Below, in pieces: positions 6,522-47,565 of a stretch of DNA of 64,000 bases. The DNA is from Candidatus Poribacteria bacterium. GTDB lineage: Bacteria; Poribacteria; WGA-4E; WGA-3G. The notes below the pieces were generated by a model, which had not been told where the DNA came from, did not search any database, and was given only the letters and a program-made list of their open reading frames with translations. A program made the translations under genes and the position numbers. Each line of letters starts with the position of its first letter. The first letter of the stretch is position 1. The stretch lies in contig OZ244048.1 of NCBI GenBank assembly GCA_965215265.1, positions 2,141,743-2,205,742 on the forward strand, written 5' to 3'.

Positions 6522-6530
6522 ACTGTTTGT

Positions 6531-6567: not shown

Positions 6568-6668
6568 AGATTCTAAACAAAACGCGTAACTTTCTTATAC
6601 TAGTGGTGTTCATATAGGTAAAGTTTGCTAACTAAACCTATCTCACGCTCAAAATGGAAATATAACAG

Positions 6669-7382: not shown

Positions 7383-7603
7383 CTTTAAATTACAGATAGT
7401 TGGACCTGTCTTGATAGGAGGGGCCACTACAATCTATTCTCCTACAATGGCGTGGGAGAACCTGAATAATCAACCCTGAAAAAAAGCGTAACTTCTTAGT
7501 GTCTCAGGTGTTGATAGATACAAAACTTGTTAGGAATACGAGGGCATACTTGTCCGATTCGAGAACTTTACTAACAAGTTACCTAAAGGAGGAAACAGTC
7601 CGA

Positions 7604-8599: not shown

Positions 8600-8625
8600 T
8601 GTCTATCCCTTGGAAGGGGCGAGTG

Positions 8626-8649
8626 GAAACCACTCGCCCTACCCTTAAA
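8626..8649 (+). promoter_or_regulatory. 10-bp stem-loop between exbB and exbD (gggcgagtgg-aaac-ccactcgccc); possible attenuator or processing site
   Basis: Perfect inverted repeat with no U-tract. Confidence 0.35.
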
Positions 8650-8666
8650 CAAATGGAGATTTTGAA

Positions 8667-9116
8667 ATGCAACAACTCGCTGAAGGCAAATTGAACATGC
8701 TTGCAAATAAAATTAAGGAACGCAAGGCACCAACCCTCAGCATGGCACCGATGATTGATTGTGTCTTTCTACTCCTAATTTTCTTCATGGTTTCAACAAC
8801 CTTCTCACCCATTCCAGGGCTCCGGGTACAGCTCCCACCGCCAGGGAAACCGTCTCCGGATAAACCGAAAGGGCTCACCGTCAGAATCGCTAACCCGGAA
8901 CCAGGTGAGAGCAGAGGCACCATGGTCCTGAATGACGAGGTCGTTCAACTTGAGGAAATGTTTACGCAATTCATCAACGCCCCAGAAGAAGCAACGAGCA
9001 TGTTGATTATCCAATCTGAACGCGACGTACTTCATGAACAAATTGTACAAGTTATGGATATTGCTAAACAAGCAGGTATTGATAAAATCGGTTTTGCTAT
9101 TGTCGCCCGAGACTGA
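8667..9116 (+). CDS. exbD: biopolymer transport protein ExbD/TolR
   Basis: RBS GGAG. The hallmark N-terminus is MAPMIDCVFLLLIFFMVSTTF with a single TM. Confidence 0.8.
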   Translation: MQQLAEGKLNMLANKIKERKAPTLSMAPMIDCVFLLLIFFMVSTTFSPIPGLRVQLPPPGKPSPDKPKGLTVRIANPEPGESRGTMVLNDEVVQLEEMFTQFINAPEEATSMLIIQSERDVLHEQIVQVMDIAKQAGIDKIGFAIVARD

Positions 9117-9163
9117 ACCTATACACTCGGCGACACTGACACTTATAGGAAAGGAGAATTCCA

Positions 9164-9586
9164 ATGGCTTTGAACATTTCCCGAAACCGGAATAAGGACG
9201 AAGATGAAGATATTCCGATGGCACCCATGATTGATTGTGTGTTCTTGCTATTAATTTTCTTCATGGTCTCTGCTATTATGCGGGTTCCCCCACCTTTCAC
9301 GGTGACGCTCCCGGATTCCTCTACGCAACATGAATTCACGCGAAAGAAGTACAATCTTTTCATCAGCAGCGACGGCCGCGTCTCAATTGACGATCAGGAA
9401 ATGCTCACCCTGGAGGACATGGAGATGTTCCTATCTGCCCATGAAAACCAGATCAGCACCTTGATTATCAAGGCAGATAAACGTGCAAAACACGGCGTTG
9501 TCATTGACGTGGTTGAACGCGCGAAAATGCGCTCCAGTAAAACGGAGGGACTTGAAGTCGCTTTCGCAGTGTCTGAAGAAGATTGA
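9164..9586 (+). CDS. exbD: second ExbD/TolR paralog
   Basis: RBS AAGGAG. It has the same …IPMAPMIDCVFLLLIFFMVSA… motif. Confidence 0.8.
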   Translation: MALNISRNRNKDEDEDIPMAPMIDCVFLLLIFFMVSAIMRVPPPFTVTLPDSSTQHEFTRKKYNLFISSDGRVSIDDQEMLTLEDMEMFLSAHENQISTLIIKADKRAKHGVVIDVVERAKMRSSKTEGLEVAFAVSEED

Positions 9587-21757: not shown

Positions 21758-24010
21758 TTACTCCTCGGAGTTAGCAGCGTTTGACTTCCCCATTTCCTCT
21801 TTGAGCAGTGCTCCCAGGGCGGTTACGGTTTTCTCAGGAACCTGTTTCGCACGTCTCGGTTCCCGCCGGGGTCTGGCGTGCTGCTCTCTCTGTTTTTCTT
21901 CCGTTTCTTCCGGAGCACGTACGGCTGCACGTTCTTGCTCAGCAATCGCTGCCTTCAAACTGAGGCCGATTCGCCGGTCTCGCGGGGAAAGGTTAATGAC
22001 CTTTAAGTCAAGTTCTTGCCCAACGGATACAATTTCGTGCGGGTTTTCAATGCGCCGGTCTGCCAATTCAGAGATGTGAATTAAACCTTCAATTCCTTCC
22101 TCCAATTTGGTAAATGCACCAAAACTCGTGATATTGACAATTTCACCACGCACAACGGAACCAACCTTATACTTCTCCGGGACGTTTTCCCACGGATCCG
22201 GCTGCGTCTGTTTCAGTCCAAGTGAAACCCGGCGTTCCTGCGCATCAATTTGCAGAACAACCACCTCAATTTCGCTTCCTTCCTTCAAAGTTTCATGAGA
22301 TTCTGCACCCCGTTTTGTCCAAGAGAGGTCTGAGGTATGGATTAATCCATCAATACCTTCTTCAATTTCAACAAATACACCGAAATTCGTCAAGTTTCGG
22401 ATGCGACCTGTAATTCTAGCACCAACTGGATACTTTTGTTCCAACAGCTCCCACGGATTCTGTTGCAACTGTTTGATACCGAGCGAAATCCGTTTGTCTG
22501 ACTTAGAAATCTCAAGCACAACGGCTTCAACTTCCTGACCTTTACTCACAATACGGGAAGGTGCAACGTTCCGGCGGGTCCAGGACATTTCCGAGACATG
22601 AATTAATCCTTCAACCCCTTCTTCTAAATGAAGGAACGCGCCATAGTTAACGATATTCACAACGCGCCCGCGCACGGTGGAACCGACTGGATACTTCTCT
22701 TCAACATTCTCCCACGGATCCGGTGTCTTCTGTTTCAAGCCCAACGAAATTTTCTCGCTGTCCTTGCCGATACCGATAACTAAGACTTCAATATGGTTAC
22801 CAACGCCGACGACCTCAGACGGATGGTGAATCCTTCTCCAAGCCATATCTGTCTTGTGGAGTAAGCCATCAACACCACCTAGATCCACAAACGCGCCAAA
22901 GCTGGTTATATTTTTGACTTCACCGGTTACCAATTGTCCGACTTCCAGTCTACTCAGAACCTCAGCCTTCTTTTTCGCTAATTCTTCCTCTAACCAAGCA
23001 CGACGAGACAACACGATATTATGTCGCCGTTTGCTCAGGCTGATCACCTTCATTTCCAGGACCTGACCGACATAGTCTTCTAGATTCTGAACCGGCCGCA
23101 TTTCAATTTGAGAGGCAGGGAGAAAGCCACGGAGTGAGCCAACGCTCACACGGAACCCCCCTTTAATCCTTTCTGTAATCCGGCCATCTACTGGCGTACC
23201 GCTCTCATGTGCACGCGTAATCTTATCCCAAATAAGCGTCTGGTCTGCTATGTTTTTTGAAAGAACTATCTGTCCTTCCGAATCTTCGCGACGGACAATG
23301 TAGACATCTATGACATCGCCTACCTGCACCGGCGGCATATCGCTTCTGCCGGCACCAAATTCCGCTGCAGGGATATAGCCCTCTGATTTAAAGCCGATAT
23401 CGATCATCACCTCATCGCGGTTGACATCTACAACGGTGCCTTTAACTATTTCACCATCCGTAAATGCCTTAATTGAATTATCATACGCCTCTTCAAGAGA
23501 TTCCGGGCTCATTGGTTCTGGAGACGATTCCGGGGCATCCGCAGCAGCGGCAGCCTCATCTGGAAACTCCACCGGCTGTTCAACTTCAGCCGTGTCCTCA
23601 GTTGTCTCCGATTCATCGGTAAGGACTGCTGCCTGTTCCGTTTCAGCGGAGCCTGACGTGCTAGCTGCCTCGGCATCTGAAGCAACCTGCACAACTTCAG
23701 GGGGCTCGTTTGCAGAACCCGCTTCTGTCTCTACTTCGGCGGTCTGTTCAATTGCCTCTTCACCGGTAAGAGAGGTACGTGCCTCAGATAGTGTTGCTGC
23801 TTGATCAGATTCTGAACTGTCAGAAACAAGAGGCTCCTCCTCGCCCGTCTGCGCTTCATGCTCCTCAGGGGCATCCTCGGTTACCGGGGGCGAATTTTCA
23901 GTGTCCGGTGTTTCTGTCTCGCTTACTGCTTCCTTATTCACTTCAACTGTCTCATGCTTTTCTTCCACTTCAACAGCGGATGGATTAGTTGTTGACTGTA
24001 CGTTATTCAT
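21758..24010 (-). CDS. rpsA: 30S ribosomal protein S1 with a ~166-aa acidic low-complexity N-terminal extension
   Basis: At least four S1 domains (…GAFV.L..G..GL.H.S…). A typical S1 start would correspond to the internal Met at 23512. Confidence 0.85.
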   Translation of the reverse strand: MNNVQSTTNPSAVEVEEKHETVEVNKEAVSETETPDTENSPPVTEDAPEEHEAQTGEEEPLVSDSSESDQAATLSEARTSLTGEEAIEQTAEVETEAGSANEPPEVVQVASDAEAASTSGSAETEQAAVLTDESETTEDTAEVEQPVEFPDEAAAAADAPESSPEPMSPESLEEAYDNSIKAFTDGEIVKGTVVDVNRDEVMIDIGFKSEGYIPAAEFGAGRSDMPPVQVGDVIDVYIVRREDSEGQIVLSKNIADQTLIWDKITRAHESGTPVDGRITERIKGGFRVSVGSLRGFLPASQIEMRPVQNLEDYVGQVLEMKVISLSKRRHNIVLSRRAWLEEELAKKKAEVLSRLEVGQLVTGEVKNITSFGAFVDLGGVDGLLHKTDMAWRRIHHPSEVVGVGNHIEVLVIGIGKDSEKISLGLKQKTPDPWENVEEKYPVGSTVRGRVVNIVNYGAFLHLEEGVEGLIHVSEMSWTRRNVAPSRIVSKGQEVEAVVLEISKSDKRISLGIKQLQQNPWELLEQKYPVGARITGRIRNLTNFGVFVEIEEGIDGLIHTSDLSWTKRGAESHETLKEGSEIEVVVLQIDAQERRVSLGLKQTQPDPWENVPEKYKVGSVVRGEIVNITSFGAFTKLEEGIEGLIHISELADRRIENPHEIVSVGQELDLKVINLSPRDRRIGLSLKAAIAEQERAAVRAPEETEEKQREQHARPRREPRRAKQVPEKTVTALGALLKEEMGKSNAANSEE

Positions 24011-24158: not shown

Positions 24159-24187
24159 TTGACATTTTTCGGAATTTAAGATAAAAT
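24159..24187 (+). promoter_or_regulatory. sigma70-type promoter (TTGACA, 17-nt spacer, TAAAAT) for the STAS/RsbW operon
   Basis: Consensus -35 with good spacing. Confidence 0.45.
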
Positions 24188-24246
24188 CATTATCGGTTCT
24201 CAATAAGCATGCAGAATTTTTATGTAATGTATAGTAGGTGATTTTT

Positions 24247-24591
24247 ATGACTGCAACCGAATTGATGATGCTCCGGGACTATTCCGGAATCAAAATTATA
24301 AAAATAAAAACAGAACTCAGTAGTTATGCCGCATCCGATTTACGTAAAATGCTTGAGAGACTCTTAGAGCAAAAAGTTGATAAAATTATCGTTAATCTAA
24401 GTCAAGTCAATCATATCAACAGTACCGCTGTGGGTGCTCTCGTCGGCATTGCCAAGCGATTACGCCAAAATGGAGGAGACCTTAAAATCTGCGAATTAGC
24501 CGATAATTTGACACGGACTTTTAATTTAATAGGCGCATCAAGCGTTATTGAAATCTATGAGTCTGAAAACAGTGCGATTGCCGCCTTTTAA
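24247..24591 (+). CDS. STAS-domain anti-sigma-factor antagonist (SpoIIAA/RsbV-like)
   Basis: RBS AGGTG. ~115 aa STAS fold, with the conserved Ser region …INSTAVGALVG…. Confidence 0.7.
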   Translation: MTATELMMLRDYSGIKIIKIKTELSSYAASDLRKMLERLLEQKVDKIIVNLSQVNHINSTAVGALVGIAKRLRQNGGDLKICELADNLTRTFNLIGASSVIEIYESENSAIAAF

Positions 24592-24628
24592 ATACAGCGA
24601 CTTTTGGAACAAAGCAGATCTGAAGCCC

Positions 24629-25054
24629 ATGGAGAAAGCGCATATTAAAATTAAGATTCCGAGCGACGTTTTTTATTTAGAACCGGTTCGGGCCTTTATA
24701 GGAAACTTAGCACAACACCTCGGATTCTCCAGAAAACGAATTGCCGATATTCAACTCGCGGTTGATGAAATCTGTAGCAACGCAGTGGATCACGGTTCCC
24801 TGAGTACCGAAGCCGAAATTAAATTGCAAATTTGCGGTAATTCGCAAGCACTTGAGATTTTGGTGCAGGATGCTGGAACAGGAGTCGCTTGGTTAACGCC
24901 GGAAAGACTCGCCGAAATTGAGGCGAATCGCTCATCCAACAACGAGAGCGGGCACGGTATTTTTCTCGCAAAATTGCTCTCTGATACTTACGATATACGA
25001 TGCAATGCCGACGGCGGAACGGATGTTCATGTAATCTTTTACCAGAAGGATTAG
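24629..25054 (+). CDS. anti-sigma regulatory factor, Ser-protein kinase (RsbW/SpoIIAB-like GHKL ATPase)
   Basis: N-box E.CSNAVDHG and G-box DAGTGV. 141 aa from Met 24629. The longer TTG ORF overlaps the STAS gene. Confidence 0.7.
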   Translation: MEKAHIKIKIPSDVFYLEPVRAFIGNLAQHLGFSRKRIADIQLAVDEICSNAVDHGSLSTEAEIKLQICGNSQALEILVQDAGTGVAWLTPERLAEIEANRSSNNESGHGIFLAKLLSDTYDIRCNADGGTDVHVIFYQKD

Positions 25055-25547
25055 ATATTTGGCGGAGCGGAGACATCTTTCTCAAAAATAAGTATACTGT
25101 TCTTATCACGTAGCGAAGACGTTTCCACAGATTTCCACCTGGGCAGCCGCCAAGCCAAACGTTTGTGGATACACTATAAAGCATGATATACGAGTCCTTC
25201 TAATGATTTTTGGAGTTCAGGAATGATGAATTCAATATGGAAGATTAACAAGCAACGAGATGATCATCTGCTAATCATTGCTTCTTTTCTCCTAATACTT
25301 AGATGGATGCTGGATGAGCTCAAAGGAGATGTATTTGATGGGTTAGATTTGTTCCTGATGATTAGCAGTTCCTGGGTGTACTTTTGGGTACTTCGGCATC
25401 GGAATAAACTCACAAAGGGAGGACTCCTTTTTTTTTCTAGGGGTAAATGTGTTTGTGAGTGTACTGGCAATTGGCGTTATCTTTTGGGGATGGCAGTTCA
25501 AATTGTATCCTGAAAACCTAGCTTTAGGTACGAAGAGGGGAGAAGCC

Positions 25548-26744
25548 CTAATGCTTCTCCCCTCTCTGTTGTAACTGTTGTGCAGCTGCCTCAATTGCAA
25601 TGAGCGTCAGATCATCGTCTTTAGGACAGGTATCCGTGAACGCATCAATGATTTGGGAGACATTGTTAATGAGTAGAGAGACGGGTTGTTCAGTAGAGGC
25701 GTTGAGGAGTTTCAGGAGTCGTTCTGCTGTAAATTCTTCACCTTGCGGGTTTTTGGCTTCGTAAGTCCCATCGGTATAGAGAAATAGTCGGCTGGACTTG
25801 TCAAACGGATAATGGATAGTTTCATACGTCGATTCCCGCCAAATCCCTAATCCGTTCCCCGTGTTTTTATCGCCAATCGGATGATAGGTCTGCTGTTCGC
25901 TGCTATACAGAAACGGGAACGGGTGCCCCGCATTAGCGCAGATAAATTGGCCTTGAGAGATGTCAAGGACACCACAAAACGCGGTTGCAAACATGAAAAG
26001 GTGGGAACTAATCATATCGTTGAATCGAGTATTGAGGATTTTGAGGAGCCGACTCGGGTCATCTGGGATAAGGGGTTGGAATTCTGCCAAAACGGTTTTG
26101 ATGAAAACTGTCACAAAAGCCGCTGAGACACCGTGTCCCATCACATCAGAGATAAAAACGCCTAATCGATTCGGGGTAATCTCCCAGATATCAAAGAAAT
26201 CCCCACCGACCGCCATTTCCGGGCGGCAATGCGAAGCAATGCTAAATCCCGATAATTCCTGAACGCCATCCTCAGGAAGCAGAATTTCCTGAATGCTTCG
26301 TGCCATTTGGAGTTCTTCTTCTAATCGCGCGTTATGGCTTTCAAGCGTGTCATGATAGTGTTTGATACGCAATAGCGACCGGACGCGTGCTAACACCTCA
26401 AGGCTATTAAACGGTTTTTCAATCAAATCATCTGCACCTGCATCGATTGCCTTAATCCGATTTTCGTATGTATCTCGCAGGGCTGTTATCATAACAATCG
26501 GGATAAATGCAGTCGCAGCATTCGCACGAAGGCGTTCAACAACTTTAAATCCGTCCATCCGCGGCATGTTTATATCTAATAAGATCAGGTCCGGCATTTC
26601 GTTCTCTACAGCCTCTAAGGCTTCAAGTCCATCTATTGCACTGCAAACTGTGTACCCGCGTGCACTGAGATGAATTTGAAGAATTCTCACATTCTTCGGT
26701 TCATCATCAACTACGAGAATTTTGGCTGGAGTTTCGGAGTTCAT
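25548..26744 (-). CDS. response-regulator receiver fused to a PP2C/SpoIIE-type Ser phosphatase (RsbY/RsbP-like)
   Basis: REC: ILVVDDEP…DLILLDINMPRMDGF. The C-terminal half is a PP2C domain (GDFFDIWEI…DVMGHGVSAA…). Confidence 0.8.
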   Translation of the reverse strand: MNSETPAKILVVDDEPKNVRILQIHLSARGYTVCSAIDGLEALEAVENEMPDLILLDINMPRMDGFKVVERLRANAATAFIPIVMITALRDTYENRIKAIDAGADDLIEKPFNSLEVLARVRSLLRIKHYHDTLESHNARLEEELQMARSIQEILLPEDGVQELSGFSIASHCRPEMAVGGDFFDIWEITPNRLGVFISDVMGHGVSAAFVTVFIKTVLAEFQPLIPDDPSRLLKILNTRFNDMISSHLFMFATAFCGVLDISQGQFICANAGHPFPFLYSSEQQTYHPIGDKNTGNGLGIWRESTYETIHYPFDKSSRLFLYTDGTYEAKNPQGEEFTAERLLKLLNASTEQPVSLLINNVSQIIDAFTDTCPKDDDLTLIAIEAAAQQLQQRGEKH

Positions 26745-27133
26745 TTACCGTTTCCTTTAATGTGAGCTTCTACGCGTTCCACCAGGACCTGGATATCAAT
26801 CGGTTTGCTCAGATAATCGTCACAGCCTGCTTTTAAGATGCGTTCCTTGTCCCCAGACATCGCTGCAGCGGTTAAGGCGATGATTGGGATATCTGCCCAT
26901 CTCAATTCCGATTTAATTTTGCGTACTAAATCCTCACCGCTCTCTCCAGGGAGGGCAATATCCATCAGAATGAGTTGAGGCTTTGCCGCTTCTAAGCAGG
27001 CGATTGCTTCCACAGCGTCTGTCGCTTCAATAACAGTATATCCTTTTGACTGTAGCACAATCCGCACCACTTTCCGGTTCAATTCCTGGTCTTCAATCAC
27101 CAATATTCGCGGCAGTGAGTTTGTGGTGTTCAC
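26741..27133 (-). CDS. single-domain response regulator (CheY-like)
   Basis: ILVIEDQELN…LILMDIALPGESGEDL…K. Overlaps the downstream gene by 4 nt. Confidence 0.8.
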   Translation of the reverse strand: MNTTNSLPRILVIEDQELNRKVVRIVLQSKGYTVIEATDAVEAIACLEAAKPQLILMDIALPGESGEDLVRKIKSELRWADIPIIALTAAAMSGDKERILKAGCDDYLSKPIDIQVLVERVEAHIKGNGK

Positions 27134-27187
27134 GGGTTGCCCTCAATTCAAGCGAAAGAATCTTATATTATCGACACGTTGCATGGA

Positions 27188-29497
27188 TTAATCTTTTCGC
27201 TGCGTCCGTGGAATTCTAAAACTGAAGTTACTTCCTTTGCCCACATTGCTGGTGATACTGATGCCCCCCTGATGCAATTCAATTAAGCGATGGGTAAGAG
27301 CCAAACCGAGGCCTGTTCCACCGTAACGACGAGACTTCGAGGTATCAATCTGTGTAAACGGAGCGAAGAGTTTCCCCAAATCTTCTTTAGTGATGCCTAT
27401 ACCGGTGTCAATTACCTCGGCCCGGAGTTCTGTCGAAGTCAGTTCCAATTCAGTTGTAACCTTTCCGTTGTCCGGGGTGAACTTCACAGCGTTTGAGAGT
27501 AGATTATAAAAAATCTGCTTCAATTTAACACGGTCAGCTTCAATTGTTCCATTTTGATTGTAGTTCAAGGTGATATGCAAATTCTTTTTTCCGGTGAGGG
27601 CTTTAATAATCGTGTTGACTTCCTCCACGGCTTCTACAATAGAGAAGGTTTCGAGTTGTAGCATCATTTTCCCAGCTTCAATTTTTGAAAGATCAAGGAT
27701 GTCATTAATCATCTCTAACAGATGTTGCCCACTTGTATGAATGTCGTTCACACACTCCTTCTGCTCTGGATTGATGCTACCGACGAGCTCGTCTCGGAGA
27801 ATTTCGGCGAATCCAATGATCGCGTTTAACGGTGTCCGAAGTTCGTGGCTCATGTTCGCGAGGAAGTCGCTCTTTGCACGACTTGCGTATTCAGCCGTCT
27901 CTTTCGCACGCTGCATCGTCTGCTGTGCCCGGATGCGTTCGGTTATATTCAGTGCCATGCTAATACCGAGATTCCTTCCATCCGGTAGGATTCCCAATAA
28001 AGACGAACTAAATTCCCATATCTGTTTTTTACCGTGTTTGGTAACAATTTCATACTCGCCCTCAGCGACACGTTCTGTAGAACCATATAACTGTGCAAGA
28101 TGGACTCTGATGTCATTCACTTTTCCGCCATCTGTTTGTTCCAACCATTTGGAAACCGTAGGAATGTCCTCAAGTTTATACCCTGTTAATTCTGTCCAGG
28201 CACGGCTAATCAGAATCACTTCTCCATCTTCAGCATGAATCATAACGGGGAGGGGCGCGTTAAGCACCGCTCTGCGAAAACGTGCCTCACTGTTCTGGAG
28301 CTCAATTTCTGCTTGTTTCCGGTCCGTGATATCCGTTGAAGTCATCACAAAACCGACTAATTCTCCATCTCGTTTAATGGGACCTAGACAAGAGGCGTAC
28401 CAGTTTCCGCTCATTTGGCCTTGCACTTCGTACGTCGCCACCTCTCCAGTTTCAATAACCTTTGAACAAGCTTTTCGGAATCTATCATGATGCTCGCTAT
28501 TCAAGAATTCAAAAATGCTTTTTCCAACAACGTCTTTGGTTGTTAAGCTAAGTCCGGTAGGGATCCGGTTGAGGAACTCTAGCTGATAGGCAAGGTTCAT
28601 TGTTGTAATCAGATCTGGCGCACTTTGAACGAGAGAACGCCATTTCGCTTCCGAATCCCGCAACGCTTGTTCCGCACGATAGTATTCAGTAATGTCCCGC
28701 GAAATACCACACGTTCCTTGAATTCGGCCATTTCTATCCCGAATTGGTACCTTGGTTGTCGAAACCCATGTATCTCGTCCATCCGGCCATGTCTCTTTTT
28801 CCTGTTTACCCTCAATTGGCTTACCCGATTCAATAATCGTTTTTTCGTCTTTGTACGCCTGCTGTGCATGTTCACGAGTAAAAAAATCAAAATCCGTTTT
28901 TTCGACAGCATCCGCAGGGTTTTTCAAACCGAACCGGTTTGCCAACGAACGGTTGATGCGGATAAACTTACTCTCTGTATCCTTGAAGTAGATCTGATCG
29001 GTGGAACTGTCCATAAGCGTATGCAACAGATCGCGTTCTTGCGTATGCACCGCCGCCAGTTTCTGATACCGCTTCTCACTCTCTTTCACTCTAGCTTTCA
29101 GATGCTTTGTCTGCGTTATATCTTTGACCACAACATAGCAGGTTTCTTGTGCTGATGGTTTATGAACTTGCCACCGCAGCCACTTGTAAGACGAATCTTT
29201 GCACAGATAGCGGTTCTCAAAGGAGACTATGACACATGCCCCGCATCTCAGCTTTTCGATTTCGCTGAACGTATGCTCCATATCATCTGGATGTATCAGA
29301 TCCAACCAGTGATGCCTCTGAAATTCTGCCTCGCTAAATCCGAGGACTTCCTCCCAGACAGGATTTAATACCACAAGTGCCCCATCAAGTTTTAGAGAGC
29401 CGAACATCTCAGAGGACAGATGCAAAAAAGAGGCACTCTGATCGATTTCCCCTTCAGCTTGCAATATTGTCGTTCCAGTTAAACCCAAATGTGTCAT
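27188..29497 (-). CDS. multi-PAS sensor histidine kinase
   Basis: Several PAS/PAC blocks, H-box HELRTPLNAIIGF and HATPase G-boxes GTGLGLAL. There is no C-terminal REC. Confidence 0.85.
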   Translation of the reverse strand: MTHLGLTGTTILQAEGEIDQSASFLHLSSEMFGSLKLDGALVVLNPVWEEVLGFSEAEFQRHHWLDLIHPDDMEHTFSEIEKLRCGACVIVSFENRYLCKDSSYKWLRWQVHKPSAQETCYVVVKDITQTKHLKARVKESEKRYQKLAAVHTQERDLLHTLMDSSTDQIYFKDTESKFIRINRSLANRFGLKNPADAVEKTDFDFFTREHAQQAYKDEKTIIESGKPIEGKQEKETWPDGRDTWVSTTKVPIRDRNGRIQGTCGISRDITEYYRAEQALRDSEAKWRSLVQSAPDLITTMNLAYQLEFLNRIPTGLSLTTKDVVGKSIFEFLNSEHHDRFRKACSKVIETGEVATYEVQGQMSGNWYASCLGPIKRDGELVGFVMTSTDITDRKQAEIELQNSEARFRRAVLNAPLPVMIHAEDGEVILISRAWTELTGYKLEDIPTVSKWLEQTDGGKVNDIRVHLAQLYGSTERVAEGEYEIVTKHGKKQIWEFSSSLLGILPDGRNLGISMALNITERIRAQQTMQRAKETAEYASRAKSDFLANMSHELRTPLNAIIGFAEILRDELVGSINPEQKECVNDIHTSGQHLLEMINDILDLSKIEAGKMMLQLETFSIVEAVEEVNTIIKALTGKKNLHITLNYNQNGTIEADRVKLKQIFYNLLSNAVKFTPDNGKVTTELELTSTELRAEVIDTGIGITKEDLGKLFAPFTQIDTSKSRRYGGTGLGLALTHRLIELHQGGISITSNVGKGSNFSFRIPRTQRKD

Positions 29498-29521
29498 GAA
29501 GCACCTTTTGTTTACAGTGTG

Positions 29522-30283
29522 CTACTTCGTTACCAAAACAGCACGATTGGCCAATTTGACGACGGTCTGCGTTGTACTTTGGAAGACGAGTTCGTACAAT
29601 CTGCCGTGATGGCTAGCACTCAGTGCGATAAGGTCGCAATCTGTTGCCTCAGCGTTTTCTAAGATGTTCGTTACCGTAAAACCACGAGCCGTCAAAAATT
29701 CCGTCGTGACATCATAGTAATTCAGATACGCTTCCATCTGTTGCTTAATTTGCGTCGCTTCATATTGCGTATTTGAAAGGGCGAGCCCCAAAATACCGGC
29801 CTTTGTCAATTCGCCAATTTCAGCCACAAGACTTAAGACATGGTCCGAATAGATATCACCGTGATGGACAGCTAAAATTTTGCGTAAAAGTGTACACTGT
29901 TCATGAACAATGATGATCGGTTTCGTAATATGCGCGAGGATATCATCAATCTGGCTCTGAATTAATTTTAACCCGCGAGTTCTTATGTCTTCCGGTAGCC
30001 CGACGACGACAAGATCTGCCGAACGTGCTTTTTGGCAAATCATCTGCTCCGGATTTCCAGCAACGGCTTCAACGTGGTAATCAAGAAAATCATACAGCGA
30101 GCATTCCGCTTCTGTCCGGCGCACCACAGTTTCTGCAACATCCGCACTCCCACCATGCTCACTATCCTGAAAAAATACACATGATAAATGTGTTCCTAAG
30201 AGCACCGCCAACTGACCTGCGTACTCAAAGGCATTTTTCTCATAATCTGTATCACCAATAGCAACGAGAATGTTTTTTATCAT
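29522..30283 (-). CDS. tandem universal stress protein (UspA family)
   Basis: Two Usp-like halves, 253 aa. Confidence 0.6.
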   Translation of the reverse strand: MIKNILVAIGDTDYEKNAFEYAGQLAVLLGTHLSCVFFQDSEHGGSADVAETVVRRTEAECSLYDFLDYHVEAVAGNPEQMICQKARSADLVVVGLPEDIRTRGLKLIQSQIDDILAHITKPIIIVHEQCTLLRKILAVHHGDIYSDHVLSLVAEIGELTKAGILGLALSNTQYEATQIKQQMEAYLNYYDVTTEFLTARGFTVTNILENAEATDCDLIALSASHHGRLYELVFQSTTQTVVKLANRAVLVTK

Positions 30284-30402
30284 TACCTCTCACCTTCCGG
30301 GTTTTTGTAGATTGATGTGTTATGTTAACTGCGCTTGAATTTATCGCCCCACGTTAAAGCGGGTCCGGACGGGGATAATCAAGTAGATTATCCCCAACCT
30401 TA

Positions 30403-30753
30403 CTATGAATGCTCCAACAAAGCCGCACAAGCCTCATCTTCAGTTTCAAAGTTTTTAAAAACGGTGATTAATCTCGCCATCACAATCAGGTTTTTCACAT
30501 GTTTATTCACATTTATCACCGCTATTTTCCCCCCGCGTGGATGGATATCAGCGTAGATTTTCATCATCGCACCGAGAGCGGAACTGTCCATGCCTGTTAC
30601 TTCTTGAAAATCAAATACTAATTTCGGCGACCCTGTGAGCCCGGCGAGAGTACTTTCGATAACATCCGTTACCGTTGTAATACCCGGGGCCATAATCCTA
30701 CCGCTGAGTCTAAAAACAATAACCCCTTCTCTCTCAGACACGGTGATTGCCAT
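30403..30753 (-). CDS. STAS-domain anti-sigma-factor antagonist
   Basis: RBS GGAGGA. …FQEVTGMDSSALGAMM… conserved Ser region. Confidence 0.7.
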   Translation of the reverse strand: MAITVSEREGVIVFRLSGRIMAPGITTVTDVIESTLAGLTGSPKLVFDFQEVTGMDSSALGAMMKIYADIHPRGGKIAVINVNKHVKNLIVMARLITVFKNFETEDEACAALLEHS

Positions 30754-30811
30754 ATTTTCATCCTCCACGTTGTGCAGTGTGAAGTGAATTCAGTCAATCA
30801 AGTTGGCTGAA

Positions 30812-31159
30812 TCAGTTTTCGCTACCTAATTCTGAGACCGCAGCATCTTCCGTGTCATAATGTTCAAAGATACTAACGAGCCGGCTTCGGACAATCAGGT
30901 TTTTGATGTTTTTCCCAACGTTGATAACCCCAATCCTTCCACCTTGTCGTTTTGCCGCCACATGCGCACCCATCAGTGTACCCAAACCAGAACTGTCCAT
31001 CATTGTGACCCGGTTAAAATCTATCAGAATCCGTGGTGCCTCACTGTCATTGATCTGAGCTGTAATAGTTTCTCGTAACTCTGATACAGCAGCACCCATT
31101 ATTTTCCCCGTGGGTTCCAGAATGGCGACACCATCCTTTTGACGAATTGTCGTTGACAT
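30812..31159 (-). CDS. STAS-domain anti-sigma-factor antagonist
   Basis: RBS AAGGAG. …FNRVTMMDSSGLGTLMG…. Confidence 0.7.
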   Translation of the reverse strand: MSTTIRQKDGVAILEPTGKIMGAAVSELRETITAQINDSEAPRILIDFNRVTMMDSSGLGTLMGAHVAAKRQGGRIGVINVGKNIKNLIVRSRLVSIFEHYDTEDAAVSELGSEN

Positions 31160-41268: not shown

Positions 41269-44200
41269 GTGATAGAACTTTTACGCCATACCCAGAATTA
41301 TCAAAAACTGAGCACTGCCCTCAAACACAGGGAAGAACTTACATGGCTCCGAGGCTTGCCCAATGCATCCACGGCATATCTCTTAGCAGTGCTCATTGAC
41401 GACTTTCCTAATAAATCATTCCTAATTGTACTCCCATCACAACAAGAAGCAGAACAAGTGCACGCGGAAATCCAGACTTATTGGACGTATAGTCTTCCTA
41501 ATTCTGATGCCATGGATACTAGCACGCAAACACAAAAACCTCTGCCTGCACACCCACACATGACACTTTTTCCCGGATGGCAATCACAACTTTTTGATGG
41601 CATCCCGCCATCCAAAAATACGGCTGTCCAGCGGATGCAAACGCTGCAAACGTTGCTGCAAGCACGCGAACGCAGCGTGGTTGTAACGAACGCCCGAACG
41701 TTAACTTACAAACTGCCACCCCGTTCAACATTGGCAACCGCTTTCTGCGAACTTCAACTCGGTGATGAAGCAGAACCAGACGATGTCATTGAAATGCTCC
41801 TCTGCGGCGGTTATCAACAGGTCGAATTGGTAGAGGTCAAAGGCGAATTCGCTTTCCGCGGGGACATCCTCGATGTCTATCCCTCCACTCTTGATACACC
41901 CGTCCGAATCGAATTTTTCGGCGATGAAGTTGAGGCCATCCGCGCCTTTGAACCCATGTCGCAGCGCTCAACTGAACAACTTGATGCCGTTACACTCCCA
42001 CCGATGCGCGAAATTCTCGCACGTCACATCTCTCTCGAACACTGGCACTTGCAAACAGACCAAATCATCCAAGAATATGCAACGCCGCAATTGATACACC
42101 GTATTAATGAACTCACACAACACTTAAAGGAAGCTACTTGCGAGCCGACAATAAGACGCACACACACAACCGACAACTTTACAGCAGCACCCCCGATGTT
42201 CGATTGGATAGAGGCGTTCTTGCCGCTCCTCTATCCCAAAACTGAAGCACTCATCGACTATCTCCCCGATGACACTTGTGTTGTACTGATAGAACCACAC
42301 TGGCAAAAACGTGAAGCAGCCCAAATGCTCGAGCAGATGCACGAACTGTTTCAGAAAAATTTGGCAGAATCAAAACTCATGGTGCCACCAGATAAAATGT
42401 TCGTTCCATTTGAGGAGCTCCAGACGCAATTAAAGCAATATCCGCTCCTCTGTGCATCCTTGGCACCCCCACGCGACATCTCAGCCTCAGAAAAGACACA
42501 GCTACACTTTGATATGAAACCGTTGGGACTGCCACGAGGCAGCTACCAGATGGTTATCGACCACATCAAAACCTGGACAGACGAAGGATATCAGGTTTAT
42601 GTATTCTGTGAAACGCCACAGCAGGCGAAGCGCGTCTCAGAAATTTTAGCCGAACGAGAAGCCGACTCAGAAATCAGCGAACACGCTATCCACGCTAACC
42701 ACACGGACTTCACAGCCAGCAATCCTTATCGTCTTAATCGACTTTTCGTCACAGTCGGAACAATTACGGAAGGCTTCCTTAATGAATCGCTAAACATCGT
42801 TGTCATCTCCGAAGAAGAGATATTCGGCAATCGGCATCAACGGCGAATACGGCCGAAACGACCCAAGGACGGCACACCGGTTCTCAGCCTAATTGACTTG
42901 AAGATAGGAGACCATGTCGTGCATGTCTCGCACGGCATCGCGGTTTATGGAGGCATCCAGCGCTTGGATTTTAACGGAAAATTACAAGATTTCCTAGTCC
43001 TCAAATATAGCAATGACGATGTCCTCTATGTGCCTAATTATCAAGTCGAGCTGGTTCAAAAATATATCAGCAGCAACGATGAAACTTACAAACCGCGGCT
43101 AGACCGACTAGGCGGACCCGCATGGCGCAACCGAAAAAACAGAGTAAAAGCATCAATCGAAAAAATGGCCGATGAACTCCTCGAACTTTACGCCGCACGC
43201 CAAGCCCGAAAAGGTTATAGCTTCCCAGACGAAGTACCCTGGCAGACTGAATTTGAGGCCCTGTTTCCTTATCAAGAAACCGATGATCAGTTCCAAGCAA
43301 TTGAAGATGTTAAAGCCGACATGGAGGCAGAACAGCCCATGGACCGGCTCATCTGTGGCGATGTCGGATACGGTAAAACTGAAGTCGCCTTGCGCGCAGC
43401 CTTTAAAGCCGTCATGGCCGAAAGGCAGGTCGCCGTACTCGTTCCAACAACCATTCTCGCACTCCAGCACTACGACACCTTTGAGAAACGGTTCAAGCCC
43501 TTTCCTGTTCACGTCGAAATGTTGAACCGTTTCCGAACGCCAAAGCAGATAAAGCAGGTCAAAGCAGGACTCGCAGATGGCACGGTCGATATTGTTATCG
43601 GAACGCACAGCCTCCTCGCCAAAACCGTCGAATTTAGCAACCTTGGCCTCTTAATTGTTGACGAAGAACACCGATTCGGCGTGAGACATAAAGAGAAAAT
43701 TAAGAAATTTAAAGAGACAATTGACGTACTCACGTTGACCGCAACACCAATTCCGCGCACTTTGCACATGTCGCTCGTCGGAATCCGAGATTTCAGCGTT
43801 ATCAACACACCACCCGCCAATCGACTGCCGATTCAAACCTACGTGATGCCGTACAACACGGATGTCATCCGAACCGCAATCCTCCAAGAATTAAGTCGCA
43901 GCGGTCAGGTCTTCTTTGTACATAATCGCGTCCGGAGCATCCAGAGCATTGCCAAAAGGTTGGAGCAATTGGTCCCAGAGGCACGCATCGCCGTCGCACA
44001 TGGACAAATGCCCGAACGTGAACTCGAAACGATTATGCTTGAGTTTGTTCGCCACAAGCACGACATACTTGTTTGTACCATGATTATTGAATCCGGACTC
44101 GATATCTCGAACGTAAACACTATCCTGATTAACCGGGCTGATGCACTCGGGTTAGCCCAACTCTATCAACTTCGCGGGCGCGTCGGACGCGCCGAGGCAC

Positions 44201-44901
44201 AGGCGTACGGTTATATGTTCTATCCAGAGAACCAAGTAATTACCGAAGGCGCGCAGAAAAGACTCCGCGTCATTGAAGAATTTACCGACCTCGGCTCCGG
44301 TTTTAAAATCGCACTCCGAGACCTAGAAATCCGTGGAACAGGCAATATCCTCGGCGCAGAACAGCACGGACACATCGTTACAATCGGCTATGAACTTTAC
44401 TGCAAACTCCTTGAAGAAGCCGTTCAGAAGTTGAAAGGCGAAACGGTCGAGGAGAATATTGAAACGCGCATCAACCTACCTATTGAAGCTTACTTGCCAG
44501 ACGACTACGTACCAGATAGCCGCCAAAAGGTGGCGGTTTACCGAAAAATTGCCGCCTTAAAAAACGAAGAAGCCTTACAAGAACTTCGCGCTGAACTAAA
44601 CGATCGATACGGTGCTATTCCTGAACCCGCTCAGATGCTTCTCGCTGTCGCCAGTCTCAAGCAGCTTTGTCAAAAACTCAGCATTACCGCAATCGTGGCG
44701 GGGAAAGCACAGATAAAAGTCACTTTTGACGAGCACAAACCACGAATTAACATCGAACGGCTACTTGAGGACATCCGCAAAGATGATAAACTTCGGCTCC
44801 TTCCGCCAGCACAACTTATGATTCGCATGCCGAACGGAACAACCGGAGAGAAAATGCTTACTGAATTACAACAAACCCTAACACAGTTTGTTAAAACATA
44901 G
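41269..44901 (+). CDS. mfd: transcription-repair coupling factor
   Basis: 1210 aa. DEEHRFGV DExH box and helicase motifs …LTLTATPIPRTL…, with UvrB-homology N-terminal and TRCF C-terminal domains. Confidence 0.9.
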   Translation: MIELLRHTQNYQKLSTALKHREELTWLRGLPNASTAYLLAVLIDDFPNKSFLIVLPSQQEAEQVHAEIQTYWTYSLPNSDAMDTSTQTQKPLPAHPHMTLFPGWQSQLFDGIPPSKNTAVQRMQTLQTLLQARERSVVVTNARTLTYKLPPRSTLATAFCELQLGDEAEPDDVIEMLLCGGYQQVELVEVKGEFAFRGDILDVYPSTLDTPVRIEFFGDEVEAIRAFEPMSQRSTEQLDAVTLPPMREILARHISLEHWHLQTDQIIQEYATPQLIHRINELTQHLKEATCEPTIRRTHTTDNFTAAPPMFDWIEAFLPLLYPKTEALIDYLPDDTCVVLIEPHWQKREAAQMLEQMHELFQKNLAESKLMVPPDKMFVPFEELQTQLKQYPLLCASLAPPRDISASEKTQLHFDMKPLGLPRGSYQMVIDHIKTWTDEGYQVYVFCETPQQAKRVSEILAEREADSEISEHAIHANHTDFTASNPYRLNRLFVTVGTITEGFLNESLNIVVISEEEIFGNRHQRRIRPKRPKDGTPVLSLIDLKIGDHVVHVSHGIAVYGGIQRLDFNGKLQDFLVLKYSNDDVLYVPNYQVELVQKYISSNDETYKPRLDRLGGPAWRNRKNRVKASIEKMADELLELYAARQARKGYSFPDEVPWQTEFEALFPYQETDDQFQAIEDVKADMEAEQPMDRLICGDVGYGKTEVALRAAFKAVMAERQVAVLVPTTILALQHYDTFEKRFKPFPVHVEMLNRFRTPKQIKQVKAGLADGTVDIVIGTHSLLAKTVEFSNLGLLIVDEEHRFGVRHKEKIKKFKETIDVLTLTATPIPRTLHMSLVGIRDFSVINTPPANRLPIQTYVMPYNTDVIRTAILQELSRSGQVFFVHNRVRSIQSIAKRLEQLVPEARIAVAHGQMPERELETIMLEFVRHKHDILVCTMIIESGLDISNVNTILINRADALGLAQLYQLRGRVGRAEAQAYGYMFYPENQVITEGAQKRLRVIEEFTDLGSGFKIALRDLEIRGTGNILGAEQHGHIVTIGYELYCKLLEEAVQKLKGETVEENIETRINLPIEAYLPDDYVPDSRQKVAVYRKIAALKNEEALQELRAELNDRYGAIPEPAQMLLAVASLKQLCQKLSITAIVAGKAQIKVTFDEHKPRINIERLLEDIRKDDKLRLLPPAQLMIRMPNGTTGEKMLTELQQTLTQFVKT

Positions 44902-45007
44902 CAAGCTTGTAGAAGCGCAATTCATTCTCTGCCTCTCCACGCTTGCATCTTTAAACCATCGGAGCACTGTGAAAAGCACAGAGTCTTTCTCATAGCTCTC
45001 CATTTCT

Positions 45008-45097
45008 GATTACCACAGCAGCCTAAATCGGCTCTGACGAGATTTGTATAGGTATTATGAAAGCAGCAGCCTTTTATAATGCTTCAGGAGACAAAAA
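45008..45097 (+). repeat. repeat family B, copy B1 (core …ggctc[tc]gacgagatttgta…gcagcagcctt…)
   Basis: ~97% identical to B2 over 90 nt. Lies just 3' of mfd. Confidence 0.8.
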
Positions 45098-45217
45098 TAT
45101 GTAGCCGCGAGCTGATGCTCGCGATTCTTAATCGGAGATTCGCAGGAAAAGGTATTGACCTAAAGGTTAATTAATACCTTACCTGCGAACTTGAACCACA
45201 AAAAAGGAACTATGAAT

Positions 45218-46258
45218 ATGAAAAAAACGATTACTATTTTGAGCATCGTCGCCATAACTTGCCTGTTGACATGGCGATTTGTTCAGTCCGATAGCCATGT
45301 TGGAATTGGGCCGGTGGAAGCCACAGAAGAGCATTCTGCAAACCAGACATCTACAGACGATGAGAATCTACAGATTGTGGCTGAATTTAAATGGAACGGC
45401 CAACGTCATCAAATTTCTCTCGCAGACTTGAACGCCGCAATAGCAGAACTGCCGGTTTACCGCCAGCAAAACTATGAAAACCGGGCGGACAAAGCCGAAT
45501 ACTTAGAAGAACTGATAGAGGAACGCCTCAAAATCCTACGTGCTACTGACGAAGGGTTTGATAAACTACCAGAACACCTCAAAAAGTTAGATGACTATAC
45601 CCATCAACTCATGTTGGAAAAACTGACCGAAATTGAAGTAGACCAGAAAATCGTCTACACCGATGACGAACTCATGGCACACTATGAGGAAAACATAAGC
45701 GAGTACATTGAAGACGCTAAAGTCCGAGCAACCTGCATCAGCCTCGACGATGAAGACCTGGCCAACGAAACGTTAGATGCAATTATAGCAGGCAAAGACA
45801 TCGTAGAAATGGCAAATGAACTCTTTCAGGCAGGCAAATTAGCCAACGGCCCCGGAACCAATCGCGATGAACCCGGGAACACATATCTCTTTACAAAGGC
45901 AGTCTCTCCACGCTGGGAGGAATTCATCAACGCCACATTCGCCCAAGAAATTGGCGAAATCACCGATACCGTCTTTGAGACCGAGGTCAACGAGCAAACA
46001 TTCTATCTTATTTTCAGAAAAGAGGAACACCACCCCGAACGCCAGATGGAATTCGACGAGGTTAAAGACGATATCATACGCGACATCGAACGCAACAAGA
46101 AGCAGCTGCGCATAAACGAGTGGTTAGAAGAAATTTATGAACGCGGGAAACTGAAGACCTACCCTGAGAATATTCCTACTCCCTCAGAACCAGCGGAAGA
46201 GGAAAATCAAACTCAAGAGCATCCCTCAGATACCAAACAAGGAGAAAACGAGAATTGA
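45218..46258 (+). CDS. SurA-like periplasmic chaperone paralog with a degenerate parvulin (PpiC) domain
   Basis: Signal peptide. SurA_N-like …AEFKWNGQRHQISLADLNAAIAELP…. The parvulin-like region lacks GGDLG. Confidence 0.55.
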   Translation: MKKTITILSIVAITCLLTWRFVQSDSHVGIGPVEATEEHSANQTSTDDENLQIVAEFKWNGQRHQISLADLNAAIAELPVYRQQNYENRADKAEYLEELIEERLKILRATDEGFDKLPEHLKKLDDYTHQLMLEKLTEIEVDQKIVYTDDELMAHYEENISEYIEDAKVRATCISLDDEDLANETLDAIIAGKDIVEMANELFQAGKLANGPGTNRDEPGNTYLFTKAVSPRWEEFINATFAQEIGEITDTVFETEVNEQTFYLIFRKEEHHPERQMEFDEVKDDIIRDIERNKKQLRINEWLEEIYERGKLKTYPENIPTPSEPAEEENQTQEHPSDTKQGENEN

Positions 46259-47307
46259 AAACTTTAATCACAACGTTAACACACGCACGTGCCGCCCAGA
46301 ACAGCCTCGCATATCTGAGCCTATTCGCGATTATTGTGACACTACCCCTATTCTATGCATGCGGCGACAAAGCCATCGGAGCAGACGGAACTGTCATTGC
46401 TGAATTTGAATGGAACGGGAAGCACAAAATCACACTCGAAGAGATGATGCAGGAAATTAGTGAGCTCCCTGAATACAAACAACGCAAATATCAGGACAAA
46501 GAGGGACTCGAAACCTACATGCTCCTCATGGCAGAGAGCCGGCTCATCCTCAACCTCGCACGCGATATGCAACTCCAAGAAGATCCCGAAATCCTCAAAA
46601 AGGTTCAGGACTATCTTCATGAGCTAATGGTAAAGAAAATTACCACCCAGGAAGTTGATGACAAACTCTCTTTGAGTGAAGCGGATTATATCAGCTATTA
46701 CGAGGCACATAAGCAAGACTACATCCGTCCAGCACAAGTCCGACTCCTATGTATCACCCTGCTCAACAAGGAGCGCGCTGAGGAAGTCTTCGCGGAAATC
46801 AACGCAGGCAAAGACATCGCTGAAGCTGCACAGGAACTCTCCGATAGAGGCGAGCTCGTCGGACCAGGCGCAAACCCCGCAGCACCCGGCGATACCGACT
46901 ACATTGGTAGAAGCGCCTTTCCATCAGGCACAGAACCTTTCTTGGATGCAGCATTCTCCGCTGAAATCGGAACATTCCACGACAAGATAGTTGAAGTTGA
47001 CGTGCAAGGACAGAAATACTACATGATCTTCCGAAAAGACGAAGCACGCGATGAATACCAAAAACCTTTTGAGGAAGAAGATGTACGCAAAAATGTCGTC
47101 CGAAAGGCTGAACGCGAAAAACGACAAGCACTCATGAAAGAGTGGATCGCCAGCCTCAGGGAACGCGCTGAAGTCATCACATACATTGACCGCATCCCTG
47201 AAGCACAAAACGAAGAAGCACCTGCCGAAACCGAACCTGAGGCACAACCCGAACAAACGCCTGAGGCACAACCCGAACAAACGCCTGAGGACAATCAACC
47301 TGAATAA
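46255..47307 (+). CDS. second SurA-like paralog (degenerate PpiC) with a C-terminal 24-bp x2 PEAQPEQT repeat
   Basis: …AEFEWNGKHKITLEEMMQEISELPEY… parallels the previous gene. 4-nt overlap implies an operon. Tandem repeat at 47239-47286. Confidence 0.55.
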   Translation: MKTLITTLTHARAAQNSLAYLSLFAIIVTLPLFYACGDKAIGADGTVIAEFEWNGKHKITLEEMMQEISELPEYKQRKYQDKEGLETYMLLMAESRLILNLARDMQLQEDPEILKKVQDYLHELMVKKITTQEVDDKLSLSEADYISYYEAHKQDYIRPAQVRLLCITLLNKERAEEVFAEINAGKDIAEAAQELSDRGELVGPGANPAAPGDTDYIGRSAFPSGTEPFLDAAFSAEIGTFHDKIVEVDVQGQKYYMIFRKDEARDEYQKPFEEEDVRKNVVRKAEREKRQALMKEWIASLRERAEVITYIDRIPEAQNEEAPAETEPEAQPEQTPEAQPEQTPEDNQPE

Positions 47308-47325
47308 CCAATTTTGATTACCACA

Positions 47326-47406
47326 GCAGCCTAAATCGGCTCTGACGAGATTTGTATAGGTATTATGAAAGCAGCAGCCTTTTATAGTACTTCAGGAGAC
47401 AAAAAG
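47326..47406 (+). repeat. repeat family B, copy B2
   Basis: Near-identical to B1. Followed by a 15-bp perfect hairpin. Confidence 0.8.
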
Positions 47407-47408
47407 TT

Positions 47409-47451
47409 GTAAAGTGTCTAAAGTTACTACACAAGACTTTAGACACTTTAC
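47409..47451 (+). terminator. 15-bp perfect-stem hairpin after surA-like gene 2 (gtaaagtgtctaaag-N13-ctttagacactttac)
   Basis: Perfect inverted repeat with no U-tract. Confidence 0.4.
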
Positions 47452-47496
47452 AGCCCTTTAAACTTGAAGGAACCACGTTATGCTATGCCTAATGCG

Positions 47497-47565
47497 TCTC
47501 CGACGAGATTTACACTGTCATTAACAAAGCATAAAGCGTGATGGTACGGAGATATACAAAACACC
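47497..47565 (+). repeat. repeat family B-related element F1 (ctccgacgagattta…gatggtacggagatatac), abutting the surA start
   Basis: Shares both modules with F2 at 54847-54935. Confidence 0.7.

Follow-up and report, generated by a model that had tools for sequence, protein, structure and literature searches.

A predicted two-component-gated partner-switching module with three STAS proteins and a tandem universal stress protein in Candidatus Poribacteria

Organization of the cluster and features of its proteins

A 64,000-nucleotide stretch of DNA from Candidatus Poribacteria bacterium (contig OZ244048.1, positions 2,141,743 to 2,205,742; referred to as the window and numbered from its first base) contains, at positions 24159-31159, an eight-gene cluster of the Rsb partner-switching type. 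Open reading frame (ORF) listing and Pfam scans divide the cluster into two convergent operons. The + strand operon consists of STAS1 and, after a gap of 37 nt, the gene of an RsbW-like kinase. The - strand operon reads, in the order of transcription, STAS3, STAS2, a tandem universal stress protein (Usp; the protein is denoted Usp2), a sensor histidine kinase (HK), a stand-alone receiver (REC) and a response-regulator phosphatase, REC-PP2C; the stop codon of the REC gene overlaps the start of the REC-PP2C gene by 4 nt, and the remaining gaps in this operon measure 24-119 nt. The bounds of the cluster run from the -35 hexamer ahead of STAS1 to the start codon of STAS3. An earlier reading of the DNA letters, hereafter the sequence-only reading, had named three STAS proteins, an RsbW-like kinase, a REC-PP2C, a REC, a multi-PAS kinase and a tandem Usp; Pfam located every one of these elements where that reading had placed it. 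The features are:

24159..24187, + strand: sigma-70-type promoter-like site of the STAS1-RsbW operon (TTGACA-17-TAAAAT, 11/12 match)
24247..24591, + strand: STAS1, single-domain STAS protein of the anti-sigma-antagonist type, 114 aa (PF01740, E=1.5e-20; TIGR00377, 64.5 bits; mechanical ORF from GTG 24238)
24629..25054, + strand: RsbW/SpoIIAB-type GHKL serine kinase, 141 aa (HATPase_c_2, PF13581, E=4e-20; ORF 24548-25054)
25548..26744, - strand: REC-PP2C (SpoIIE-family) response-regulator phosphatase, 398 aa (PF00072, E=3e-28; PF07228, E=1e-40)
26741..27133, - strand: stand-alone receiver (REC), 130 aa (PF00072, E=2e-27)
27188..29497, - strand: soluble sensor histidine kinase with four PAS domains, HisKA and HATPase_c, 769 aa (Pfam)
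29522..30283, - strand: tandem universal stress protein Usp2, 253 aa (PF00582, two stretches, E=2.5e-23)
30403..30753, - strand: STAS2, single-domain STAS protein, 116 aa (PF01740, E=7e-15; TIGR00377, 53.8 bits; mechanical ORF to GTG 30768)
30812..31159, - strand: STAS3, single-domain STAS protein, 115 aa (PF01740, E=2.5e-17)
31336-31308, - strand: sigma-70-type promoter-like site of the STAS3-STAS2-Usp2-HK-REC-REC-PP2C operon (TTGACA-17-TAAAAT, 11/12 match)

The promoter-like sites ahead of STAS1 and STAS3 carry an identical pair of hexamers. The pattern TTGACx-N17-TAnAAT is also seen 5' of STAS1 in five relatives (L001-L005), and TTGACA-N17-TAnAAT lies 5' of STAS3 in 8/9 relatives. A terminator scan revealed no convincing terminator between the convergent operons, and at Rfam gathering thresholds the whole window gave no match to an RNA family, hence no sign of a riboswitch or leader.

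The convergent stop codons of the RsbW and REC-PP2C genes are separated by an AT-rich spacer of 493 nt (25055-25547). Within it, an ORF of 96 aa (25223-25513) encodes two hydrophobic stretches and has no match in Pfam. This spacer was found only in the window, where it is present in a single copy, and in the public contig L081, which also carries the cluster; because the two are 99.4% identical over the spacer, L081 probably derives from a slightly different strain. The corresponding gap measures ∼20-45 nt in L001-L004 and L007-L010, ∼155 nt in L006 and ∼700 nt in L005, the latter two without similarity to the window spacer. The possibility that the spacer is a repeat or a conserved gene was rejected, as it is species-unique, non-repeated and free of Pfam matches, and we treat it as incidental. 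An exact-sequence look-up with REC-PP2C gave no match.

REC-PP2C possesses the receiver residues DD13-14, D57, T87 and K110 as well as the PPM metal-binding motifs GGDFFD (180-185), SDVMGHG (199-205), YTDG (323-326) and DDD (376-378), and its top full-length solved relative is Pseudomonas aeruginosa RssB (3eq2_A, E=1e-33). The stand-alone REC is intact (ED, D58, T88 and K110), with the receiver of the hybrid kinase HrmK as its top NCBIfam match. The histidine kinase contains the H-box SHELRTPLN (550-558) together with N, G1 and G2 boxes; over any 19 residues, its Kyte-Doolittle (KD) hydropathy does not exceed 1.05. By NCBIfam, its core resembles those of the hybrid-type kinases LuxQ, ArcB, TorS and BarA. 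Because the kinase core is hybrid-like and the top match of the REC is a hybrid-kinase receiver, the pair resembles a split hybrid kinase. The cluster contains no Hpt domain. Hydrophobic segments that could form a membrane helix are absent from all eight proteins, and the pathway is therefore cytoplasmic. The orthologous kinase of locus L005 (7924-9810) is 628 aa long and apparently has three PAS domains instead of four, suggesting that the sensor module varies within the clade.

The start codon of the RsbW-like kinase, ATG 24629, is backed by a 100%-identical database protein of 141 aa (P0001) and by public gene calls. The top NCBIfam matches of this protein are the anti-sigma B factor RsbW (57.6 bits, compared with an equivalog cutoff of 145), RsbA and SpoIIAB, all below the respective equivalog cutoffs; because it scores under those of RsbW and SpoIIAB, we regard it as a member of the family and not as an orthologue. 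The top solved relative is Bacillus subtilis RsbW (6m36_A, E=4.5e-9), and the N-box E..NA..HG, D-x-G and S-GHG motifs are kept across 120 orthologues. The sequence-only reading had stated that no anti-sigma domain was present; by the above matches to RsbW, RsbA, SpoIIAB and PDB entry 6m36, this HATPase_c_2 protein is itself of the anti-sigma type.

Each of the STAS proteins scores above the anti-sigma-antagonist cutoff of TIGR00377 (53.45 bits), and gene calls on L081 agree with lengths of 114 aa for STAS1 and 116 aa for STAS2. Alignment of STAS1 to SpoIIAA (1th8_B) places a serine at the phospho-site, within the motif INSTAVG (ORF residues 60-66), and this serine is invariant in 10 orthologues. 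The phospho-site motif of STAS2 is MDSSALG, the serine again being invariant in the Poribacteria orthologues. STAS3 aligns to 1th8_B with E=9.5e-10 and positions MDSSGLG, a motif invariant in its orthologues, on the SpoIIAA phospho-site; the SpoIIAA variant chain 1tid_B reads DASGLG at the position aligned with STAS3. All three proteins therefore have a serine at the position equivalent to SpoIIAA Ser58, without exception in any Poribacteria orthologue. STAS2 and STAS3 are paralogues (37% identity), whereas STAS1 is only 22-23% identical to either. To judge from these alignments, the kinase motifs and the STAS phospho-sites are under purifying selection.

Several STAS proteins together with a small GHKL kinase and a PP2C phosphatase superficially resemble an RsbRST-X module, and the cluster could on this ground be taken for a stressosome-type (RsbR/RsbS/RsbT) complex, in which a STAS scaffold sequesters the kinase. 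The protein architectures essentially exclude this interpretation: no RsbR-like protein with an N-terminal sensor and a C-terminal STAS domain is present, all three STAS proteins being single domains of 114-116 aa; among solved structures they are closest to SpoIIAA, RsbV and TM1442 and not to RsbS or RsbR; and the kinase matches RsbW and SpoIIAB best.

Conservation of the cluster within Poribacteria

Species-representative genomes were scanned with REC-PP2C, and the window genes were then placed in the resulting loci by tblastn. Ten Candidatus Poribacteria loci were recovered at 64-79% REC-PP2C identity, below which identity drops sharply to ∼32% in other phyla. All eight genes are present in identical order and orientation in 9/9 full-length orthologous Poribacteria loci; the tenth locus (L004) is a 2.8-kb fragment with four of the eight. 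The rate of divergence differs widely among the genes. Usp2 is the most conserved, with 84-90% identity across the Poribacteria loci, a value comparable to that of ahcY and above that of metK, and the RsbW-like protein is the least conserved (49-65% by tblastn), which is weakly consistent with a role as kinase only.

The surroundings of the cluster vary. On the STAS1 side, its neighbours are rpsA-metK-ahcY-pfkB in the window, as in the five relatives L001-L003, L005 and L006, and genes for NMT1-like, VWA, OmpA and DUF4159 proteins in L008; rpsA was not detected by tblastn in L007-L010. On the other side, the upstream neighbour of STAS3 is a TPR gene in the window; L001 has RadC/SpoU at this place and L008 a DEAD/DSHCT helicase gene. 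In two relatives mobile DNA is located inside the cluster, the gene order being otherwise kept: in L003, STAS3 and STAS2 are separated by a TnpB/IS605-OrfB (Cas12f-like) gene (4580-6169), and L007 has two N6/N4 DNA methylase genes, one of them HNH-fused, and a gene for an 8xMP membrane protein between the kinase and REC genes (5657-9527). Because the order is constant in 9/9 loci despite differing flanks and mobile insertions, this comparison argues strongly for selection of the eight genes as a functional unit and against a chance neighbourhood.

The same data bear on the question of whether the two operons belong together. They might represent two independent systems side by side, with STAS1-RsbW served by a phosphatase encoded elsewhere and STAS3-STAS2-Usp2-HK-REC-REC-PP2C by a kinase encoded elsewhere. 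Such an arrangement would be in keeping with the separate, convergent transcription units and with the mere 22-23% identity of STAS1 to STAS2 and STAS3. We nevertheless consider it improbable, since the two units are adjacent in the nine full loci and in the L004 fragment in spite of changed flanks and mobile insertions, and since together they encode exactly one kinase and one phosphatase, the minimum complementary set. Moreover, the same convergent pairing is functionally coupled in Mycobacterium smegmatis (PMC10950880).

The eight-gene layout was also sought in other phyla and rejected there: STAS and RsbW neighbours appear only as weak tblastn hits in a minority of loci, which reflects the general association of REC-PP2C with STAS. 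The non-Poribacteria loci (L011-L069) stem mostly from metagenome-assembled genomes; their REC-PP2C proteins are ∼30% identical, and a STAS or RsbW-like gene is directly adjacent in a minority. Several of these genomes belong to phyla typical of sponge symbionts, namely Chloroflexota, Latescibacterota, Gemmatimonadota and Acidobacteriota. Searches of the literature for this cluster in Poribacteria (anti-sigma, sigma factor, universal stress protein) found nothing, and no signalling pathway from Poribacteria turned up in the literature searches.

Predicted operation of the switch and its output

Taken together, the parts, motifs, operons and conservation of the cluster are those of a cytoplasmic Rsb-type partner-switching module that is gated by a two-component system and conserved in one Poribacteria clade; the activities of its proteins are predictions from their sequences. 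The signalling logic of the sequence-only reading, from kinase to REC-PP2C to STAS with an RsbW-like serine kinase, is supported by both domains and motifs.

Within this framework, the soluble four-PAS kinase would autophosphorylate on His551 and pass the phosphate to Asp57 of REC-PP2C. The stand-alone REC (Asp58), whose translation is coupled to that of REC-PP2C, may act as a competing or inhibitory receiver and would thereby mirror the C-terminal REC of Bacillus cereus RsbK, an inhibitory domain that modulates the kinase (PMC4574943). Phosphorylation of the receiver is expected to alter the activity of the PP2C domain in a direction that is not predictable, as precedents go both ways: it is reported as activating for RsbY, and it lowers RsfR's activity as a phosphatase (PMC10950880). 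The phosphatase would then dephosphorylate one or more of the three STAS proteins at the conserved serine, which the RsbW-like kinase would phosphorylate again. The unphosphorylated STAS proteins would be the active species that bind a partner.

As to that partner, we lean towards a sigma factor encoded elsewhere in the genome. It could be held directly by this RsbW-like protein, following the Chlamydia or Shewanella pattern; alternatively, it could be held by a second, true anti-sigma factor that is antagonised by the STAS proteins, the local RsbW then serving solely as STAS kinase in the manner of M. smegmatis RsbW2. Several results weigh against a sigma output. Pfam scans of all window ORFs of at least 150 aa detected neither a sigma-70 nor a sigma-54 domain; tblastn with SigF and RpoE probes gave no match in the window or in the Poribacteria loci examined; and no sigma gene was found within 10 kb of the cluster in the flanks of the relatives. 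The probes matched one unrelated Pseudomonadales locus, so they are able to detect sigma genes. In addition, no sigma target has been identified for the partner switches of SypA, HmpV, RbaV and BtrV (PMC8256260).

The local absence of a sigma factor had already been proposed by the sequence-only reading, and by Pfam and tblastn it holds in the window and across the Poribacteria relatives; a sigB-like gene just outside the cluster, which that reading had named as the observation that would overturn its view, is not present within 24-33 kb on either side. Its further step, that the output is therefore likely non-sigma, does not follow, because characterised sigma-less clusters can control sigma factors encoded elsewhere, as the M. 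smegmatis, HsbR/HsbA, CrsR/CrsA and Chlamydia systems do. By analogy with these systems, the absence of a neighbouring sigma gene says little about the target of the cluster.

An output other than a sigma factor is possible, although we give it clearly less credence. The unphosphorylated STAS proteins or the RsbW-like kinase would then act on an enzyme, a transporter, a c-di-GMP protein or a polysaccharide or secretion machinery, with three STAS proteins as three branches. The missing sigma gene in the window and in the flanks of relatives would suit such a scheme, as would the ratio of three STAS proteins with invariant phospho-serines to one kinase, and there are precedents whose targets are non-sigma or have not been identified, i.e. 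SypA/SypE, HmpUVW, RbaVWY and BtrUVW (PMC8256260). Missing gene adjacency, however, is no evidence, given that remote sigma factors are controlled by several clusters without a sigma gene; the flanks vary and offer no conserved candidate effector; and the top family matches of the kinase are anti-sigma factors. A non-sigma output is thus a legitimate minority hypothesis that nothing at this locus specifically favours.

The role of Usp2 has to be considered separately. Its closest solved relative is the Thermus thermophilus tandem Usp TTHA0350 (3ab7, E=9e-5). Five cysteines are invariant in its orthologues, and in both halves, as read from the sequence, glutamine replaces the last glycine of the ATP-binding motif G-2x-G-9x-G(S/T). 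Homologues also occur outside partner-switch clusters, at 62-69% identity on other Poribacteria-labelled contigs, 61% on another large contig and 40-51% on unlabelled contigs. This distribution counts against our reading of the cluster as far as the role of the Usp is concerned, and a universal tie of Usp2 to partner switching was rejected on account of the homologues at 40-69% identity in other contexts. Homologues of 51-69% identity recur beside signalling or stress genes: in L082 (7303-16317) with a protoglobin kinase, a sigma-54 response regulator, MgtC, Lon and two HSP20 genes, in L086 (8897-10762) with a REC-only gene, and in L084 (414-1723) with an HSP20 gene. Some homologues have no signalling neighbour.

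On these comparisons, the Usp is an older stress-associated gene that is found repeatedly near two-component genes and that lies inside this operon in one clade. We conjecture that it is probably an accessory of the kinase or a co-regulated stress protein and not a core part of the switch. None of the characterised partner switches encountered in this analysis includes a Usp, and a full-text literature search found no paper joining partner switching, universal stress protein and STAS. A more far-reaching scheme, which we regard as doubtful, would make the partner switch a sigma-independent hub, in which the three diverged STAS proteins each lead to a different non-sigma target and the cysteine-rich, unusually conserved tandem Usp with its degenerate ATP motifs has been recruited as co-sensor or output partner of the PAS kinase.

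Several other genes of the window are recorded here. The adjacent rpsA gene for ribosomal protein S1 (21758-24010, - strand) encodes 750 aa, in which an acidic low-complexity N-terminal extension of ∼180 aa is followed by six S1 domains; its tblastn coverage of 0.77-1.0 in Poribacteria relatives suggests that the length of the extension varies. An ORF of 1153 aa (3060-6521, + strand) without Pfam match at E<=0.001 lies upstream of a CarboxypepD_reg-domain gene and MotA/ExbB-like genes (6669-8599). On the + strand at 41269-53012, mfd, the gene of the transcription-repair coupling factor (TRCF), is followed by four consecutive peptidyl-prolyl isomerase (PPIase)/SurA-like genes, the last of which encodes 1357 aa with rotamase domains and a weak LptD-like region. 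A eukaryotic-type (alpha) carbonic anhydrase is encoded at 53821-54546 (- strand), near a 427-aa protein with three DUF5069 repeats (56092-57375, - strand).

Comparison with known partner-switching systems

The closest described architecture is that of the M. smegmatis rsfB locus, in which the rsfB (STAS)-rsbW2 operon is convergent with rsfR (REC-PP2C)-rsfS (HK)-MSMEG_6128, the latter encoding a second receiver protein (PMC10950880). Both loci share the convergent layout and have no sigma gene within them, both feed several antagonists into one switch, and both follow the logic in which a histidine kinase acts through REC-PP2C on phosphorylated STAS. The role of RsbW2 is confined to phosphorylating RsfB; it does not bind SigF, the sigma factor that the locus controls and whose gene shares a separate operon with that of RsbW1, the actual anti-sigma factor (PMC10950880). 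The sensors differ: RsfS is a membrane kinase with a CHASE3 domain, whereas the Poribacteria kinase is soluble, has four PAS domains and lacks CHASE3. Likewise, the additional mycobacterial receiver has a helix-turn-helix domain and turned out not to partner with RsfS, whereas its Poribacteria counterpart consists of REC only. The Poribacteria cluster further adds two STAS genes and the tandem Usp, and the two phyla are unrelated.

In B. cereus, a two-component kinase phosphorylates RsbY, a REC-PP2C protein that acts on a STAS antagonist opposed by the kinase RsbW (PMC4574943; PMC9912610). The RsbK-RsbY-RsbV-RsbW-SigB pathway and the Poribacteria cluster have in common the fusion of REC and PP2C in one protein of the RsbY type and the extra receiver. 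RsbK, however, is a hybrid kinase with a fused REC domain and a methylatable S-helix and is accompanied by the methyltransferase RsbM, whereas the Poribacteria kinase ends with HATPase_c and its REC is encoded by a separate gene; Pfam scans of the window revealed no methyltransferase in or beside the cluster. Furthermore, the B. cereus genes lie in the sigB cluster and include one STAS gene and no Usp gene, in contrast to three STAS genes and a Usp gene without a sigma gene in Poribacteria. The label 'RsbK/RsbY-type', which the sequence-only reading had applied, is accordingly apt for the REC-PP2C logic and does not extend to the kinase architecture, RsbM or linkage to sigB.

REC-PP2C regulators paired with STAS proteins, as in Poribacteria, are also represented by Pseudomonas RssB (PA2798, 3eq2)/RssC and HsbR/HsbA and by Shewanella CrsR/CrsA. 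In HsbR and CrsR, the kinase domain is fused to REC-PP2C and the proteins are fed via an Hpt relay. The Poribacteria kinase, by contrast, is a separate protein of 141 aa, and the cluster has no Hpt. Against the RssB model NF045505, the Poribacteria REC-PP2C scores 128 bits, far under the equivalog cutoff of 700. HsbR/HsbA of P. aeruginosa and CrsR/CrsA of Shewanella act on RpoS, and HsbA acts on FlgM/FliA as well (PMC6482189).

The Rsb module of Chlamydia trachomatis is likewise sigma-less and combines a single RsbW kinase with more than one STAS antagonist, but its RsbU has a periplasmic sensor domain in place of a receiver, and the system is devoid of histidine kinase, REC and Usp. RsbU/RsbV1/RsbV2/RsbW is reported to act on the housekeeping sigma-66 (PMC8256260). 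SypE/SypA of Vibrio fischeri, HmpU/V/W of Nostoc, RbaV/W/Y of Rhodobacter and BtrU/V/W of Bordetella are triads of STAS, serine kinase and PP2C, in which the output is the unphosphorylated STAS protein and the target is possibly not a sigma factor (PMC8256260). No effector genes are conserved beside the Poribacteria cluster, and it differs in this respect from the syp, hmp and type III secretion switches. Those switches sit within or beside the pathway that they control.

Collectively, these comparisons identify this predicted stress-signalling cluster of sponge-associated Poribacteria as an ordinary member of a well-known kind, every mechanistic element of which has characterised precedents. 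Sigma-unlinked Rsb modules, multiple STAS antagonists and PP2C phosphatases gated by two-component systems are all documented, and the cluster does not define a new class of mechanism; its new features are limited to the complement of three STAS proteins and to the tandem Usp, which is embedded in the operon and evolves very slowly. With it, an uncultivated phylum known from marine sponges gains a partner-switching cluster that is well defined and phylogenetically conserved. Specialists may find a second look worthwhile at the three STAS proteins, the split hybrid kinase and the highly conserved Usp embedded among them; the tandem Usp and the three STAS proteins could guide heterologous biochemistry, although sequence alone does not suffice to interpret them. 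With its STAS-kinase operon set against a REC-PP2C-HK operon, the cluster is also a clean natural example of the convergent mycobacterial layout in an unrelated phylum.

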